From an uncultured delta proteobacterium (GTDB taxonomy: Bacteria; Myxococcota; Myxococcia; Myxococcales; Anaeromyxobacteraceae): a stretch of 64,000 bases of DNA. The first letter of the stretch is position 1, and each line of letters opens with the position of its first letter. Shown here one piece after another: positions 15,701 to 24,700 of this stretch. The position numbers were made by a program. The stretch covers positions 1 to 64,000 of the forward strand of contig CAVYBH010000013.1 of NCBI GenBank assembly GCA_963766715.1, given 5' to 3'.

Positions 15701-18700
15701 CGCCATGGAAGCCATGAACCGCAAGAAGGCGGCGCGGCTCTACGGCGCCATCGACGGCAACTCCTCGTTCTACCGGTCGCCGGTCGAGCGGGAGAGCCGC
15801 TCGGTCATGAACGTGGTCTTCCGTCTCCCCACCGAGGCGCTCGAGGAGCAGTTCGTCTCCGAGGCCAAGAAGCTCGGCATGGTGGGACTGAAGGGTCACC
15901 GCTCGGTGGGCGGCATCCGCGTCTCGACCTACAACGCCGTGCCGTACGAGTGGGTGGACGCGCTCGCCGGGTTCATGGCGGAGTTCTCGAAGGGCAAGTG
16001 AGGACGGCCGTCGGGCTGGCCCTGGCGCTGCTGGTCTCGGTCGACGGCGCGATCATCGCGCTCACGCCGATCCTGGCTCGCGGCGAGGCGACCTTCTGGG
16101 GCGGGATGGTGCTCCAGATGGCCGTGTCGGCCGGGGCGGCCTTCCTGGCCGCCCGGCTCGCGCCCCGGGACAACCTCCGGGCGGGGATCTTCCTGGCCCT
16201 GCCGGCGGCGATTCTCTGGGTGGTCCACGACGTCGCCGCCGCGACGCCCGAGCCCGGCGCAGGGGGTCTCGGCCTCGCCGGGCACGCCGCCGTCGTGGCG
16301 GTGGCCCTCGGGCTCAACCTCGTCCTGTGCGGCGCCGGCGCCGCCGTGGGCGACTGGCAGCGTCACGGGGCGACGCAGCCCGACGCCCGCTAGTACGTTC
16401 CGACGAGGAACAGGTTCGACGCGGTCCCGAAGGGGATCGACGCCTCCCCGCTCTCGAGCCCCGTCCGGACCATCACCGACGCCCGGAGCGAGAGCCAGTT
16501 CGTGAGCCCCACCGTGGCGTTCACGGTGATGCCGAGCTCGTCCAGCGCCGCGGCCGAGGTGACGCCGCCGATGGTCTCGGTGGTCTGGAACCAGGAGAGC
16601 CTCCCGGTGAGCCGGGTGTCGGGCGTAGGCGCCCACGCCACCTGCCCCCAGGCGCTCTGTCCGTCCACCCAGCCGAAGTCCTTCAGGTACCCGAAGGAGA
16701 GGCCGGCCAGGACCTTCGTGAAGGTGACCTCCGGACCGACGTACGAGTGGGACACGAAGGAGGTCAGGTCGTCGACCCAGCCGCCCAGGGCGGCGATCCG
16801 CAGCCAGGGAAGCGCGTCGACGCCGGCGCTCCCGTCGGCGCGTCGCGACGGTCCCGGGTAGGTCGCGATGGGCTCGTTCTCGGGCAGGAGCAGGCCCCAG
16901 TAGGAGAACCCGGCCGAGAGCCAGACGATGGGATCGGGCCGGACGGTGAGCGAGAGCCGGGCCGCGTCGATGTAGGCCGGGGCCCGAACGTCGCCGAACC
17001 CCATCCGGAGGTCTCCGCTCGCGCTGAAGATGCCGCCCGCCCAGTAGTTGAGCAGCAGCTCCCCCTCGTAGTGGCGCTCCACCGCCGGGTTCTGGACCAC
17101 GGCCAGGCGGGCGCTCCCGGTGAGCAGGGTCGAACCGATGGGGGCCTCGAAGTTGCCGTAGAGGCCGCCGGTGTACCGGTTGGTGGTGGGCTCGGTGGTC
17201 CACGGGTCGGGCACCAGGCCGCCGAAGACGCCGATCTCGTTCCGGCCCAGCCGGATGCCGCCCTGGGCGCCGTCGAACACGGACGAGCCCGGGACGAACC
17301 AGGGCTGGACCCGGCCGAACGCGGCGCTCCACTTGCGGTTCGGATCGCGCTGGGCGAGCTCGAGGTCGTAGACGAGGAGCTGGGTCGACGACCCGGGAAC
17401 GTAGGTGGCATCGCGCTGGGTCCACTGCATGAGCCGGGCGTCCGCGAAGACCTTGAACCCGGCGAAGGCATCGAGTCCGTTCACCTGGACGTCGAGCTGG
17501 AGCCGCTGCGAGTCGCCAGGACCTCCGGGGCTCGCCAGCCACACCGCGTAGCCCAGGTCGCCCTGGATCCGCGGAAGCTGGCCGATCGACACGGCTCGCG
17601 GCTGCACCTTGGCCTCGACGAGGGCGACCGGAGTGCCGGTCACCTGGGCGAGACGCGCCGCCTGCTCCTCGTCGGTCGGGATGGGAGGCATCGTGGCCAC
17701 GGCGGGGGCCCCGGGGATGGTGGTGTCCACGACGAATCGGTCGCCGGAACGGATCCCGGTGCCGACGCAGGTCGCCGAGTGGTCGGCGGTCTCCCGCACC
17801 GTGCAGGTCCCGGACGGCTGGCCGGCGCGGCTCAGGCGGATGACCTGGCCGACGCCCACGCCCTCGAGGGCCCCGGCGTCGATGTAGCCGGCGCTCGCCG
17901 TCGCGAAGGTCACCTTTCCCTCGACCCGCCGCGCCACCGTGGGAGCGGGGGCGCCCTGCGCGGTTGCCGCGGACGGCGTGGTGGGCGGCGCCTGCGGCGG
18001 AGGCTCGGCCTGGGCCACGGGCGAGGCCGCGAGCAGCAAGGCCAGGACGGAGAGCGCGCTCATGGCTTCACCTTCCGGAGCGGCCGGATGCTGTTCCCGC
18101 CGGCGTCACCCACCGTTCCTCGCGGGTGGCACTCGTAGCAGCGCTGGTCCAGGTTGACGCAGGAGAAGCCCGGGACGCTGGTGTGCTGGGGCTGGACCGT
18201 GCTGCAGGAGTGGCAGCGCGTGCAGGCGGGATACGGCACGCTGGAGCAGGAGCCGATCTGGAGCGGCTGCGGCAGCGTCACGTGGCACCGGGAGCAGGGG
18301 ATCCCGGCGTGGTTGCCCGAGTCGATGGGGAAGCACGATCCGTGGCCGCCGAAGGTGGCGGGGCTCCAGCGCCAGAAACCGTGGCAGCCCAGGCAGGCGA
18401 GCTGCGGGTAGCCGGGAAAGGCGGCGTGGTCCGTCCCCTTGACGCCGGCGGTCTGCAGATCGGCCTGGTGGCATTCCCAGCAGGCCACCGTGGGACGGGC
18501 GAAGGCGCGGTCGCGCCGGTCGCCGTGGCACTGCTCGCAGGGAAGCAGCGCATGGCGCCCCTGCAGCGGGAAGTTGGTGCGGCGGTGCGCATCGGCATCG
18601 AACCGGGACTTCCATCCCTCGGTGTCGTGGCAGGAGGCGCACTGGACGCCCGCGTACCCGCCGTGGACGTCCCGGTGGCAGGCCGAGCAGGCGCGACCGA

Positions 18701-21700: not shown

Positions 21701-24700
21701 CTCCACGCCGGCCTTCTTGAGGAACTCGGTGGGGGGCTCGCCGCCGATGTTGACGATGATGTCGTCGTTGGGAAGGCGCATCTCCTTGCCCTCCCACTCG
21801 ATGCGGACCTCCGACGGCGTGACGTACTTCACCTGCGATGCGAGCAGGAGGGTGAGCTGGCCGCTGTCCGAGAGCTCCTGGAGCCGCTTCCGGTTGGCCT
21901 CCCGGGCCCGCCCCAGCTCGGCGCCGCGGTACGACAGCACCACCTCGGCCGTGCCCAGCTCGGCGATCTGGATGGCGGCCTCGAGCGCCGAGTCGCCCCC
22001 TCCCACCACCAGGACCCTCCGCCCGGCGTACTGCTCGGCGTCGGTGAACCCGTACGTCACCTTCTCCAGATCCTCGCCGGGGACGCCCATGCGCCGCGGC
22101 GTGCCCCGCCGGCCGATGGCGAGGATGACCTTGCGGCACTCGATGAGCCCCTTGGAGGTGTGAACCGAGAAGGCGCCATCCTCGCCGGCGATCCCGACGA
22201 CCTGGACCCCTTCCTCGACCTTCACGTCGTTCTTCTGGAGCGCCTTTCCCCAGGTCTCGAGCAGCTCCTCCTTGGTGATGACGTTCTTGCCGATCTTCCC
22301 GAATCCCGGGATGGTGGCCGGCTCGGTCATCACCACCTTGCGGCGGGGGTAGTGGAACATGGTGCCGCCCCAGGTCCCCTGCTCGAGGATGCGGTGGCTG
22401 CGCCCGGCCTCCTGGAGCGCACAGGCCGCGGCCAGCCCGGCCGCGCCGGCCCCCACGATGACCACGTCCACCGGGCCGTCCGGACCGCGGCGACCGGCCG
22501 ATCCCTTCGGCAGGATGGCGTCGATCCGCTCGGCGGCCTGGAGCCCCTGCCGCACCGCGTTCCGCAGCAGGCCCATGCCCCCCAGCTCGCCGACGACGTG
22601 CACGCCCGGCTTGCTCGACTCGAAGAACTCGTCGATCTCGGGGAGGTCGATGCCTCGCTCCGAGGTGCCCATGACGAGCTTGATCGCCTGGACCGGGCAC
22701 TCGGCGGCGCAGCGCCCGTGGCCGATGCAGTGGTCGGCGTGCACCAGGCTCGCCGCCCCCTTCACGATGCCCAGGATGTCCCCCTCCGGACAGGCCTTCA
22801 GGCAGGAGAGGGATCCGATGCAGATGTCCGTGTCGATGACCGGGTGCAGCGACCGGGGGATGTGGAGGTTCGCCTCGGTCTTCTCCCGGAGCACCTGGGC
22901 GTCGCGCGCCTGGCGCCGGCGCCGATTGCGTCACGTGCCGGACGGCATAGGCGATGGCCACCAGGATGGAGACTCCCGCGATGGCGCTCGACAGCAGATC
23001 CACGCTTGAAACTCCCGCCCTTTCCGCCTCGTCTCCCGGGGTGCCGCATCATGGCATGCCCCTCCCCAGGAACGGCGCGCCCAGAGGGAGCGGACTTTTT
23101 AGTGGGAACCCCTTGGTTGTACCTCGAAAAAGGGACAGGGGGCCCGGCTCGCGCCGGACCCCCTGCCGAATGAGGCAACTGTAATCTACGCCGCCCGGGC
23201 GGGCGTCGCGCGCCGCTTCGCCTCGGCGCGCTCCTCGAGCCAGATGGTCATCGGAGCGGCGATGAACCAGGTCGAGTAGGTGCCCGACACGATGCCGATG
23301 AGCATCGCCATCGCGAAGTCGAAGATGGTGCCCACCCCGAAGATGAGGAGGCCGACGAGCGAGAGGGCGGTCGCGAACGAGGTGAGGATGGTGCGCCCCA
23401 GGGTCTCGTTGATCGAGATGTTCACGATGTCGCCGAGCTTCTTGCCCTTCAGCTTCCCCTGGTTCTCGCGGATCCGGTCGTAGACCACCACCGTGTCGTT
23501 CACCGAGTAGCCGACCACGGTGAGGATGACCGCCACCGAGGTCAGGTTGAACTCCCGTCCGGTGAAGGCGAAGTACCCCAGCGTGATGATGGCGTCGTGA
23601 AGGATGGCGATGATGACGCCGGGCGAGAACCGGAAGTCGAAGCGCAGGCCGACGTAGATCACGATCAGGGCCATGGCGTAGAGGATGGCCTTGAAGCCCT
23701 GGTTGCGGAGCTCGCGCCCCACGGCCGGGCCCACGTACTCGACGCGGAGCACCTGCGGCTTGGCGTCGGCGAACTTGGCGTTCAGCTCCTTCTCGAGCCG
23801 GTCCTGGATGCCCTGGGTGAGGACCGCCAGCGAGCGGGTGCCGGCGGTGAGGCCCGCCTCCTCCCGGATCTCGCGGACCTTGACGCCGGCCCCCTCGACC
23901 ACCGCCTGCAACTCGGTGGCGCTCGGGGTCACCTGGAACTCGAAGTCGATCTTGTCGCCCACCTCGGGGCTGAAGGCCGGCGTGCCCACCACCGGGAACT
24001 TCGCCTTCACGGCGGCGATGATGCGGGCGGCGTCCTCGGGCGTGAGGAGCGCCACGCGCCCCACCCGCACGAGGTATCCGTGCTCGCTCTCGGGTCCGTA
24101 GGTCTGGACCACGGCGTCGCGGAAGCCGATCGCCTCGATGTCCTTGCGGATCGCGCCCGGGTCGACGGCCTTGTCGAACTTCACCTGCATCTCGGTGCCG
24201 CCGGCGAAGTCCACGCCGTAGTCCAGGCCGTGGATCTGCGGAAGCGACCAGAGGATGACGGCCAGGTTGACGAGGGTCGACAGGATGAGCGCGATCTTCC
24301 GCTTCCCGACGAAGTCGAACTTGGTCCCGTGCGGGACGATGTCGAAGGTCTTGAATTGCATCAGACGCTCAGCCGGGCGTTGTCGTGGCGCGTGGTCCAG
24401 TCGACGATCACGCGGGTCACGACGATGGAGGTGAACATCGACGCCAGCAGGCCGATGATCAGGGTGACGGCGAACCCGCGGACCGGGCCCGAGCCGTACT
24501 GCATGAGCACCACCGCGGCGACCAGCGCGGTGACGTGGCTGTCGACGATGGTCCAGAACACCTTGTCGTAGCCCTGGTCGACGGCCTGCCTCACGGTCTT
24601 GCCGGCGCGCAGCTCTTCCCGGATGCGCTCGTTGATGAGGACGTTGGCGTCGACCGCCATGCCCAGGGTGAGCACGAATCCGGCGATGCCGGGCAGCGTC

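Follow-up and report, generated by a model that had tools for sequence, protein, structure and literature searches.

In the NOX/FRE proteins, and in MsrQ with flavin reductase Fre, two b haems receive electrons from cytoplasmic NAD(P)H and flavin and pass them across the membrane; two histidine pairs on two membrane helices, with a spacing of 13 residues, hold the haems. In the MtrCAB system of Shewanella, quinol electrons enter through CymA, MtrC is a lipoprotein cytochrome, and the structure of a cytochrome-in-barrel complex (MtrAB) has already been solved. Two types of porin–cytochrome c cluster, PCC3 and PCC4, have been predicted (He et al. 2017, PMC5566968; Gallionellaceae survey, PMC9900912). 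He et al. (2017, PMC5566968) describe their conserved inner-membrane protein as having about 300 aa and five helices, of which helices 3 and 5 bear W-x3-H-x13-H and helix 4 bears SGxxG. A purified DUF4405 protein is reported to bind haem b (Huang et al. 2024, PMC11334425). For Anaeromyxobacter, the text of Shi et al. (2014, PMC4245776) describes a two-gene Pcc cluster in which a porin-like protein adjoins a periplasmic cytochrome of 338–344 aa with 12 motifs (Adeh_3392).

We analysed a window of 64,000 nucleotides (contig CAVYBH010000013.1, positions 1 to 64,000) from an uncultured member of the Anaeromyxobacteraceae. On its minus strand, 3' of secF and with yajC, secD, and secF as upstream neighbours, lie genes for a flavoprotein–membrane fusion, a cytochrome with 20 CxxCH motifs, a cytochrome with 10, and a 22-strand barrel protein. 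The genome-wide survey's note had claimed this four-gene order after secDF and a barrel of no known family. The order is borne out by the minus-strand ORFs (18950–22894, a fused frame of 1314 aa; 18060–18998, 312 aa; 16390–18063, 557 aa), by their CxxCH counts (20, 10, and 0), and by domain matches; the barrel protein has no Pfam or NCBIfam match. On the fused frame, Pfam matches Fer4_10 at residues 17–67 (E 7e-11), Pyr_redox_3 at 145–400 (1.4e-44), and Cytochrome_C7/c3 in the latter half. The features are as follows.

23134..23167, minus strand: terminator-like hairpin in the gap that separates the secF stop at 23186 from the cluster; 15-pair stem with 12 G-C pairs, then CCTTTTTCGA
20767..23003, minus strand: flavoprotein fused to a putative di-haem-type membrane domain; about 745 aa if read as in relatives, frame broken by +1 at ~22928 and ~20901
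22941..23003, minus strand: N-terminal membrane helix, VDLLSSAIAGVSILVAIAYAV; hydropathy 2.61, out of frame with the remainder owing to the first insertion
22694..22822, minus strand: two non-canonical ferredoxin-type motifs, C-x2-S-x2-C-x3-C-P and C-x2-H-x2-C-x3-C-P (Fer4_10 match, alignment)
21692..22468, minus strand: two-Rossmann FAD/NAD(P)H domain, YpdA/TrxR/TrxR-type-FNR kind (Pyr_redox_3 1.4e-44; GAGAAG and GGGDSALE motifs)
21305..21361, minus strand: membrane helix with W-x3-H-x13-H, first histidine pair (alignments, motif search)
21221..21238, minus strand: TGxxGR motif on the following helix, apparent counterpart of SGxxG in the PCC3/PCC4 inner-membrane protein as described by He et al. 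(2017, PMC5566968)
20806..20862, minus strand: final membrane helix, bearing W-x3-H-x13-H (second histidine pair); in another frame here, behind the insertion at 20901
18950..20770, minus strand: secreted cytochrome c with 20 CxxCH in c7/c3-like repeats (CxxCH count, family matches)
18060..18998, minus strand: secreted cytochrome c with 10 CxxCH, homologous to portions of the 20-haem protein; its start may alternatively be a GTG near 18959
16390..18063, minus strand: outer-membrane protein with signal peptide, small beta domain bearing an invariant Cys pair, and 22-strand barrel (sequence and structure model)

We read the four genes as one operon for an envelope-spanning electron conduit that is fed by NAD(P)H, runs outward, and is independent of quinone, with the frameshifts as assembly errors; our probability for this reading is about 0.62. 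In the cytoplasm, the FAD domain would oxidise NAD(P)H and pass electrons to two Fe–S clusters on the same polypeptide, as its domains suggest. The invariant residues of the C-terminal domain are consistent with two b-type haems held between two parallel helices in the inner membrane, the cytoplasmic-side haem by the first histidine of each pair and the periplasmic-side haem by the second. Electrons would cross this membrane in the style of an NADPH oxidase or ferric reductase, bypassing the quinone pool. The 20-haem and 10-haem cytochromes could then form a continuous 30-haem wire through the periplasm, and the 10-haem protein, which a structure model seats in the 22-strand barrel, would lead on either to the cell surface or to a surface cytochrome whose gene lies elsewhere. 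We infer the haem and Fe–S content, the direction of flow, the acceptor, the surface reach, and the donor, be it NADPH, NADH, or ferredoxin. The survey had proposed a route from cytoplasmic NAD(P)H or ferredoxin through inner membrane, periplasm, and outer membrane; it is supported, and the parts of it that can be tested in silico all passed.

Two junctions overlap as ATGA, one between the flavoprotein TGA and the 20-haem ATG, the other between the 10-haem TGA and the barrel ATG, and we count the translational coupling that they imply as support for the conduit. The terminator-like hairpin may set the cluster apart from secDF, though it is weak taken alone (two such sites were observed in the region versus 2.3 expected in shuffles).

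An assembly frameshift had been held to fuse the flavoprotein and the 20-haem protein into one gene call. The frame is indeed broken, but not just once: relative to four relatives there are two single-base insertions, at ~22928 and ~20901, the latter being CAGATTCGCC versus CAGATCGCC. The first severs the N-terminal membrane helix, so we place the gene start at 23003 instead of 22894. The second severs the last helix, which bears two of the four haem-candidate histidines. If both insertions belonged to the organism, its flavoprotein gene would be a pseudogene and the first gene of this copy dead, whatever the module does elsewhere. Both do fall within one 2.2-kb gene, while protein comparisons reveal no frameshift in secD, secF, or the three downstream genes. 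Against such decay, contigs from three runs (X1, X2, and X4) have one base fewer at 22928/22929, X1 and X2 have one base fewer at 20900 as well, and every near-identical contig bridging the insertion sites is without the insertions. In favour of decay, these contigs are 97–99 per cent identical to ours and so represent other strains or samples, not demonstrably this one. Against it, the genome comes as 18 contigs at 84.6 per cent completeness, a frameshift likewise splits another conserved gene of the window, that for lactate permease, and the three downstream genes are intact, with 73–78 per cent identity to relatives. Decay is quite unlikely on this evidence, and sequence comparison makes assembly error the most likely origin of both frameshifts.

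Intact relatives of the flavoprotein are 736–750 aa long, and 20 of 21 keep the N-terminal membrane helix, which is followed by an Arg-rich stretch. The two Fe–S motifs noted in the survey are present, though not in the canonical four-Cys form: each has three Cys, the second position being an invariant Ser or His, and all six Cys, the Ser, and the His are invariant in an alignment of 21 sequences. That each motif has only three Cys weighs against our reading. The FAD/NAD(P)H domain matches 7a76 (2.8e-41) and 7a7b (2e-38); it scores 137 bits against TIGR04018, under that family's cut-off, and motif inspection of the 21-sequence alignment found no conserved redox Cys pair in it.

Haem-binding histidines had not been mapped previously, and alignment now locates four invariant candidates on the two W-x3-H-x13-H helices. 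H551, H565, H717, and H731 (numbering from P0005, an intact relative) do not vary among 21 fused proteins of 48–82 per cent identity and form two i/i+14 pairs on two membrane helices that, judged from hydropathy and charge, share one orientation. The same four are the only invariant histidines across 12 stand-alone homologues (21–36 per cent identity). Such homologues are about 300 aa long and carry the two-helix signature, which occurs in 68/72 stand-alone and 23/23 long representatives among the best 150. The DUF4405 match lies under the Pfam cut-off of 26.7 bits, as had been stated, at 16.3 bits for a whole relative and 19 for the domain alone. Scans of 13 family members gave weak matches to DUF4405 in eleven (best 3.6e-5), Ni_hydr_CYTB in six (1.1e-5), and Ferric_reduct in five (0.0068); all are under cut-offs and point weakly to three families of membrane haem-b proteins. 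A model of the membrane domain (pLDDT 82.8) did not retrieve NOX, ferric-reductase, or cytochrome b folds, Foldseek giving no match of any kind at E <= 0.001; its best VIA match (Z 10.2) was an ABC-transporter helix bundle.

The same histidines would also suit a quinone-active cytochrome b, through which electrons taken from Fe(II), Mn(II), or reduced humics flow inward; the flavoprotein would then have a side role or work in reverse to make NAD(P)H. For the same signature in iron oxidisers, He et al. (2017, PMC5566968) propose as much, and Ni_hydr_CYTB, weakly matched by six of 13 members, is a quinone-reactive family. We consider this unlikely. Among the best 150 representatives, at least 23 have the membrane domain covalently joined to the NAD(P)H/FAD/Fe–S module; the fusion is also seen across Myxococcota, and in a paralogous Myxococcota system where the two are separate genes, the same flavoprotein adjoins the membrane protein directly. 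On general bioenergetic grounds, electron flow from Fe(II) or humics to NAD(P)+ is uphill in redox potential and runs against the membrane potential. Named cultured carriers, moreover, include the metal reducer A. dehalogenans. The fusion itself indicates a cytoplasmic donor, and not the quinone pool proposed by He et al. (2017, PMC5566968).

In the NAD(P)H-fed conduit that we prefer, flow is most likely outward, aided by the membrane potential, and NAD(P)H electrons are probably exported without the quinone pool. With outward flow the system would serve as an electron sink, or else reduce iron, manganese, or humic matter outside the cell, and would not be an energy-conserving respiratory branch; we count it against this reading that export by such a route would conserve no energy. 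The MAG names of many carriers come from aerobic groups of myxobacteria (e.g. Archangium, Myxococcus), so the role may not be metal respiration.

The flavoprotein was found (E <= 1e-30) in 141/401 sampled Myxococcota genomes and 68/154 genera. The survey's ten related loci were reproduced, but their restriction to few, closely related genomes was a product of its pattern-based search; the module is phylum-wide. Its Thermoanaerobaculia homologue indeed lacks any CxxCH frame for about 10 kb on each side. A multihaem frame lies directly 3' of the flavoprotein in 28 of 29 short loci, and the 29th stops at a contig end. Among 40 fetched loci (regions of about 20 kb), 37 have the order flavoprotein, 20-haem, 10-haem, down to 45 per cent identity; second flavoprotein copies in two fetched loci (L054, L058) have no adjoining 20- or 10-haem cytochromes. 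Exactly 20 CxxCH occur in 27 of the 37 20-haem frames and exactly 10 in 28 separate 10-haem frames, while eight loci have a single frame of 30. These fusions, and that of flavoprotein and membrane domain, argue that the parts belong together.

The barrel protein model (pLDDT 82.6) has an N-terminal beta domain (42–117), one helix, and 22 strands (165–556), in agreement with the survey's small beta domain and barrel of about 22 strands. Modelled as a complex, the 10-haem protein and the barrel score 0.73 and the best of three controls 0.00; in a benchmark, 116/157 solved complexes but only 2/215 mismatched pairs reach the 0.73 mark. Runs share at least 77 per cent of contacts, with partner pLDDT at least 65, and cytochrome residues 76–210 contact alternate, inward-facing residues of nearly all strands. 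The model thus supports a 10-haem protein within the barrel, although the score may partly be memory of MtrAB-type assemblies. The 30 haems might instead serve as an electron store in the periplasm or feed a periplasmic reductase, with the barrel an ordinary porin or export channel that merely travels along. The barrel's fold matches are solely to porins, ushers, and TonB-type receptors of generic kind (TM-score 0.22–0.44), and MtrB is absent from those listed, which extend to rank 50; no surface cytochrome gene was found in the window's cluster, and no barrel homologue within the fetched region in 5/40 loci. A barrel homologue is nonetheless present in the other 35/40, its gene overlaps the 10-haem gene in the window, and in other genera a lipoprotein multihaem cytochrome is inserted between the two, as in MtrCAB and PCC3. 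Given these links and the modelled contacts, we regard a purely periplasmic role as very unlikely.

Compared with known systems, the conduit we propose resembles NOX/FRE and MsrQ–Fre in its predicted path from flavin through two b haems, on two histidine pairs, to the far side of the membrane. It differs from NOX/FRE in scoring 12.5 bits against Ferric_reduct (cut-off 28), in having no fold match, and in a flavin domain that is N-terminal, of TrxR/YpdA kind, and accompanied by two Fe–S motifs, where theirs is C-terminal and FNR-type. The acceptor would be a 30-haem wire, whereas in NOX, FRE, and MsrQ it is O2, an Fe(III) chelate, or MsrP. A decahaem cytochrome predicted within an outer-membrane barrel recalls MtrCAB and its relatives MtoAB and PioAB, and the lipoprotein cytochrome of other genera recalls MtrC. 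Unlike in MtrCAB, the proposed donor is a flavoprotein and not quinol via CymA, the 22-strand barrel has no family, and DmsE/MtrA family matches reach 45.7 and 28.1 bits versus a cut-off of 192.2. With the DUF4405 cytochromes described by Huang et al. (2024, PMC11334425) the membrane domain shares multiple helices and four central histidines, though its matches stay below the cut-off; theirs accompany ApbE flavinylation genes, and ours multihaem cytochromes. The Anaeromyxobacter cluster of Shi et al. (2014, PMC4245776) comes from the same genus group and likewise pairs a porin-like protein with a periplasmic cytochrome, but its description covers two genes, with neither a flavoprotein nor a 20-haem cytochrome among them. 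A barrel profile search of a 5,013,479-base genome found one homologue only, within the cluster studied here, so that porin is either unrelated or is this barrel.

The closest likeness, by the published description of the signature, is to PCC3 and PCC4 (He et al. 2017, PMC5566968): W-x3-H-x13-H occurs twice with TGxxG between, and a gene for an extracellular cytochrome is missing from the window's cluster, as it is from PCC4. Here, however, the inner-membrane component forms the C-terminal part of a Fer4/FAD/NAD(P)H flavoprotein; the main text of that study does not mention FAD, ferredoxin, or pyridine nucleotide. The hosts are Myxococcota heterotrophs and not proteobacterial iron oxidisers, and the barrel has 22 strands, compared with up to 42 reported for PCC3 porins. 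While the barrel remains family-less, the survey's self-contained layout is better seen as a variant of these published predictions: by its sequence, the cluster appears to be a fused, NOX-like, Myxococcota-wide form of PCC3/PCC4. If so, a set of genes found across Myxococcota would link NAD(P)H, via two membrane haems and thirty cytochrome haems, to the outer membrane.

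The four genes of interest follow a tgt, yajC, secD and secF series on the minus strand, in the arrangement given here.

26641-27786, minus strand: tgt, followed by yajC, secD, secF and then the four cluster genes
stop at 23186, minus strand: secF, the upstream neighbour of the cluster
23134-23167: terminator-like hairpin between secF and the cluster
18950-22894, minus strand: fused frame of flavoprotein and 20-haem cytochrome, 1314 aa, 20 CxxCH
18060-18998, minus strand: 10-haem cytochrome, 312 aa, 10 CxxCH
16390-18063, minus strand: barrel protein, 557 aa, 0 CxxCH

In the fused frame, Pfam places Fer4_10 at residues 17-67, Pyr_redox_3 at 145-400 and cytochrome c7/c3 families from residue 760. 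The haem-site counts of the three frames (20, 10 and 0) are those reported in the genome-wide survey's note, and both cytochromes carry signal peptides. The barrel protein, described there as family-less, matched no Pfam or NCBIfam family, and its model has 22 strands. The flavoprotein and 20-haem genes share an ATGA, in which start ATG and stop TGA overlap, and the 10-haem and barrel genes are joined by another ATGA. Downstream of the cluster, a class-V aminotransferase and a TPR protein are encoded in the opposite orientation. We considered secDF as a member of the system and rejected it, since the secF neighbour noted previously is a feature of the window's genus only (3/40 loci) and the hairpin separates secF from the cluster. 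No other frame in the 64-kb window has two or more CxxCH motifs. The window's genome as a whole has thirty-five open frames with at least four, and its contig C18 (600-12300) carries a cytochrome cluster with frames of 16, 12, 10, 9 and 8 CxxCH; a surface cytochrome for a conduit could be encoded there or on other contigs. Also in the window, a pyruvate:ferredoxin-oxidoreductase-like gene (POR_N, PFOR_II) adjoins a Fer4_20 and Pyr_redox_2 protein of the GltD/NfnB kind (35466-38808, minus strand), and the pair could supply reduced ferredoxin or NADPH.

Alignment with four relatives shows two one-base insertions in the flavoprotein gene of the window, near 22928 and at 20901. Because of the insertion near 22928, an N-terminal membrane helix (23003-22941) is no longer in frame with the rest, and the gene start lies at 23003, 109 bases upstream of the previously proposed start at 22894. 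The insertion at 20901 shifts the last membrane helix to a different frame and makes one continuous frame of the flavoprotein and the 20-haem cytochrome. Among short-read contigs from public metagenome runs, 97-99 per cent identical to the window, those of X1 and X2 have one base fewer at 20900, and those of X1, X2 and X4 one fewer at 22928/22929. The L-lactate permease gene of the window (47056-48902, minus strand) is also split by a frameshift, with frame 47736-48902 covering Pfam positions 1-270 and frame 47056-48744 covering 272-522, which suggests indel errors in this assembly (18 contigs, 84.6 per cent complete). Further overlapping frames in the window were considered as frameshifts; these are mostly separate genes, and the lactate permease alone is split. 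Both flavoprotein frameshifts are probably assembly errors, as the earlier note had supposed, though of two insertions and not one. The other reading is that the gene is a pseudogene in this organism, whatever the module does elsewhere, a question separate from how the system works. Because the contigs without the insertions come from near-identical strains and not provably from the window's own, a real pseudogene keeps roughly one chance in eight; against it, none of the bridging contigs carries the extra bases and the lactate permease gene is likewise split.

As a stand-in for the broken copy we used the intact flavoprotein of a relative at locus L001 (P0005, 743 aa, 81 per cent identical), which also supplies the residue numbering. 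Its N-terminus has one membrane helix followed by an Arg-rich stretch, an arrangement that puts the Fe-S and flavin modules on the cytoplasmic side. The two [4Fe-4S] motifs described previously are present in a non-canonical form: they read C-x2-S-x2-C-x3-C-P and C-x2-H-x2-C-x3-C-P, with Ser or His for one Cys each of the canonical pair of CxxCxxCxxxCP motifs (eight Cys). Twenty-one sequences all keep the six Cys together with this Ser and this His, and Fer4_10 is nonetheless matched at 7e-11. A profile search of PDB sequences returned matches to the flavin domain only. Among solved structures this domain is closest to the YpdA/Bdr bacillithiol disulfide reductases (7a76, 2.8e-41; 7a7b, 2e-38), with thioredoxin reductases and TrxR-type ferredoxin-NADP reductases next. 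The FAD and NAD(P)H Rossmann motifs are invariant (GxGxxG at 183-188 and GGGDSALE at 333-340), and no conserved redox-active Cys pair was found in the flavin domain of the twenty-one sequences. Scores fell short of the NCBIfam equivalog cut-offs of TIGR04018 (137.2 against 339.9 bits) and TIGR01292 (59.3 against 343.45 bits).

The C-terminal membrane domain (residues 440-743, 304 aa) has an all-helical model (pLDDT 82.8) and contains the motifs W547-x3-H551-x13-H565, T588-G-x-x-G592 and W713-x3-H717-x13-H731. The first His pair, H551 and H565, shares one membrane helix and the second, H717 and H731, the final one; both helices run from cytoplasm to periplasm, and an invariant TGxxGR sits on a helix between them. 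The haem-binding histidines had been left unmapped, and these four are now the candidates: they are invariant in twenty-one fused proteins (48-82 per cent identity) and are the sole invariant His once twelve stand-alone homologues (21-36 per cent identity) are added. In cytochrome b, ferric reductase and NOX domains, two His pairs of such spacing hold two b haems, and the domain has the two pairs, 13 apart and on two helices, of the ferric reductase and NOX type. As previously reported, DUF4405 (PF14358) is matched below its gathering cut-off of 26.7 bits, at 16.3 bits for the whole relative and 19 bits for the domain alone. Among thirteen family members, eleven match DUF4405 at E ≤ 1 (best 3.6e-5), six weakly match Ni_hydr_CYTB and five have weak matches to Ferric_reduct (PF01794; 12.5 bits and E 0.16 against a cut-off of 28 bits). 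These Pfam matches, which are only sub-threshold, converge on membrane haem-b families, and a purified DUF4405 protein has been described as binding haem b (PMC11334425). Structural searches with the domain model found nothing in the PDB at E ≤ 0.001 with Foldseek, and VIA-align, run on 48,161 chains, reached at most Z 10.2, to ABC-transporter and other generic helix bundles; NOX, STEAP or MsrQ-type chains were absent from the matches of both.

The two cytochromes are built from one repeated unit, and several stretches of the 20-haem protein have homology to the 10-haem one (31 per cent identity over 271 residues, E 5e-28). Thirty-one sequences of the 10-haem family show no variation in the Cys pairs of all ten CxxCH motifs, in nine of ten proximal His or in nine additional His, as bis-His haems would need. 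Both proteins remain below the 192.2-bit cut-off of the MtrA/DmsE decahaem family (TIGR03508), at 45.7 bits (20-haem) and 28.1 bits (10-haem). In eight loci (L049, L052, L069, L076, L078, L079, L081 and L082) the 20-haem and 10-haem proteins form one open frame with 30 CxxCH. The barrel model (pLDDT 82.6) consists of a small beta domain, one helix and the 22 strands, and the Foldseek matches listed, down to rank 50, are generic outer-membrane barrels only. The small domain (residues 42-117), with a Cys pair (C87, C99) invariant in thirty sequences, may have a role such as docking the cytochrome wire. Complex prediction of the barrel with the 10-haem protein gave a median score of 0.73 over three runs, compared with 0.00 for the best of three controls, a mark attained by 116/157 solved complexes and 2/215 mismatched pairs. 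The runs share at least 77 per cent of contacts, with partner pLDDT of at least 65. In the model, cytochrome residues 76-210 contact alternate residues of nearly all barrel strands, which puts them in the lumen. This supports, at the level of a predicted structure, a 10-haem protein bound within the barrel. Likeness to a solved cytochrome-in-barrel complex may account for part of the score.

The cluster had been described as occurring in few, closely related genomes, and this did not survive a whole-genome search, which reached far wider than the search needing exact peptide words that had yielded ten loci. The flavoprotein is present in 141 of 401 sampled Myxococcota genomes and in 68 of 154 genera (E ≤ 1e-30); one of the 141 genomes, G196, is unpublished. 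About a hundred of these matches are full-length, with 45-82 per cent identity. A multihaem frame directly follows the flavoprotein in twenty-eight of twenty-nine short loci, and the twenty-ninth stops at a contig end. Forty regions, each of some 20 kb and drawn from many families, keep the order flavoprotein, 20-haem, 10-haem in thirty-seven cases; of the other three, L048 runs into a contig end, and L054 and L058 are second copies. A barrel homologue is found in thirty-five of the forty (27-77 per cent identity), and in twenty-nine cases it spans almost the full barrel within a single frame of at least 500 aa. Haem numbers are fixed across loci: the thirty-seven 20-haem frames have exactly 20 CxxCH in twenty-seven cases, are fused to 30 CxxCH in eight and are split in two, and twenty-eight separate 10-haem frames have exactly 10.

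Five examined loci from other genera have a third cytochrome gene between the 10-haem gene and the barrel, which the window's genus is without. The clearest case is L053 (10362-11822), with 14 CxxCH and a lipoprotein signal (…LATGC); in L050, L055, L057 and L061 the third cytochrome has about 8-26 CxxCH, with 26 in L055. In six large-genome loci the cluster has frames of 27-30 haems next to it, a rough count since gene calling missed many cytochrome genes. Longer fused flavoproteins, in open frames of about 960 aa with an insertion between the flavin and membrane parts, were seen in L089 (G125:C4) and in matches in three other genomes (G026, G074 and G084); L089 adjoins a 30-haem frame and a barrel homologue. 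The flavoprotein was found in the cultured Anaeromyxobacter dehalogenans and A. oryzae, in the isolate Myxococcus sp. RHSTA-1-4 and in many MAGs named Archangium, Myxococcus or Myxococcaceae. The cluster layout was observed in G166, G375 and G233, which we took for cultured carriers. The Thermoanaerobaculia homologue (L007, genome G401) indeed has no cytochrome neighbours, and its neighbours gave no informative Pfam families; 20-haem-like multihaem cytochromes (45 per cent identity) are present on another contig of that genome (C73, 25900-30400).

The membrane domain also occurs alone. Its profile matched 3,671 representatives among 1.84 billion at E ≤ 0.001, 1,922 at 1e-10 and 372 at 1e-30. 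The best 150 representatives comprise twenty-three fused proteins of at least 700 aa, seventy-two stand-alone proteins of 260-330 aa, thirty-three of intermediate length and twenty-two shorter ones. Among these 150, the double W-x3-H-x13-H is present in 68/72 stand-alone and 23/23 long proteins. A paralogous Myxococcota system has the same parts unfused in all three loci fetched (L086, L087 and L088, from G248, G253 and G331). There a 440-aa Fer4/FAD flavoprotein (43 per cent identical) is divergent from an adjoining stand-alone membrane protein (27 per cent); a 30-haem cytochrome comes after the membrane protein, and one with 27 haems lies beside them. The unfused parts are still neighbours, so the flavoprotein accompanies the membrane protein whether fused or not. 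A metagenome scan with a stand-alone homologue returned a single hit, an 18-residue chance match.

We read the cluster as an envelope conduit fed by NAD(P)H, directed outward and with no quinone step, and give this a probability of about 0.6. Electrons would pass from NAD(P)H to FAD, the Fe-S clusters, two b haems, 30 c haems and the barrel. Domains, motifs, haem-site counts, operon structure, conservation and fusions are read directly from sequence; the electron path, its outward direction and the missing quinone step are inferred. Outward flow is consistent with the redox span and the membrane potential and yields no energy conservation, which makes an electron sink or mineral reduction a more likely role than a respiratory chain. 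To our knowledge, all characterised Gram-negative routes of extracellular electron transfer start at the quinone pool (CymA, ImcH, CbcL). A route in which a NOX-like flavocytochrome draws on cytoplasmic NAD(P)H would work on a different principle: it would bypass respiration, be aided by the membrane potential and permit reducing power to be dumped on minerals or humic matter.

The nearest known systems are the PCC3 and PCC4 clusters predicted in iron oxidisers (He et al. 2017, PMC5566968). PCC4 consists of a porin, three periplasmic cytochromes and a membrane protein, and the membrane protein of both kinds has about 300 aa and five helices, of which the fourth bears SGxxG and the third and fifth each bear W-x3-H-x13-H (PMC5566968). 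He et al. stated the same two-b-haem His pattern and proposed that this protein is a quinone-active cytochrome b (PMC5566968). The window's 304-aa domain has this inner-membrane signature, here fused and with Thr in place of Ser, and its cluster has the outer-membrane barrel gene and many-haem periplasmic cytochromes, a likeness of signature and layout. The periplasmic PCC3 cytochromes of Gallionellaceae have 21-27 haems, enough to span the periplasm (PMC9900912). The gene for an extracellular multihaem cytochrome that belongs to PCC3 is absent from the window's cluster, which is thus nearer PCC4. A function confined to the periplasm would suit that absence; set beside the barrel and the cytochrome modelled in its lumen, we think it quite improbable. 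It is also unlikely, if somewhat less so, that the same hardware is tied to quinones, as proposed for PCC3/PCC4, or run inward: a membrane protein fused to a flavoprotein of the NAD(P)H kind points to a donor in the cytoplasm.

The outward, NAD(P)H-fed reading bears on these systems too, since in the fused gene a flavoprotein is joined to the inner-membrane protein, so far unexplained, of the widespread PCC3/PCC4 clusters, which have been discussed as iron-oxidation candidates only. In its widest form, which we put at slightly under even odds, Myxococcota have a NOX-like, quinone-independent extracellular electron transfer, with FAD, two unusual Fe-S clusters and two b haems in one polypeptide plus a 30-haem wire and a barrel, and the inner-membrane protein of all PCC3/PCC4-type clusters, across many phyla, is fed by a cytoplasmic flavoprotein and not by quinol; the PCC3 signature and the unfused form were examined within Myxococcota. 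If true, this would overturn the published PCC3/PCC4 model, add to extracellular electron transfer a new class of entry at the inner membrane and imply a non-respiratory electron sink, or iron mobilisation, even in aerobic predatory myxobacteria. The presence of the module in culturable bacteria makes the hypothesis testable.

The main text of He et al. 2017 (PMC5566968) mentions neither FAD, ferredoxin nor pyridine nucleotide. Our literature search found no description of the fused form or the flavoprotein link, on which the supplements of that paper and other papers may bear, and no paper linking Anaeromyxobacter or Myxococcus to the cluster; Myxococcota and flavoprotein terms were absent from a peat preprint and from an outer-membrane cytochrome survey. 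Shi et al. 2014 (PMC4245776) listed a two-gene Pcc cluster of Anaeromyxobacter. In that genome the barrel profile found a single homologue, within a flavoprotein, 20-haem, 10-haem and barrel cluster, and the two-gene cluster may or may not be part of it. The cluster is a variant of the predicted PCC3/PCC4 kind, and its interest comes from the Rosetta-stone fusion and from its occurrence in culturable bacteria.
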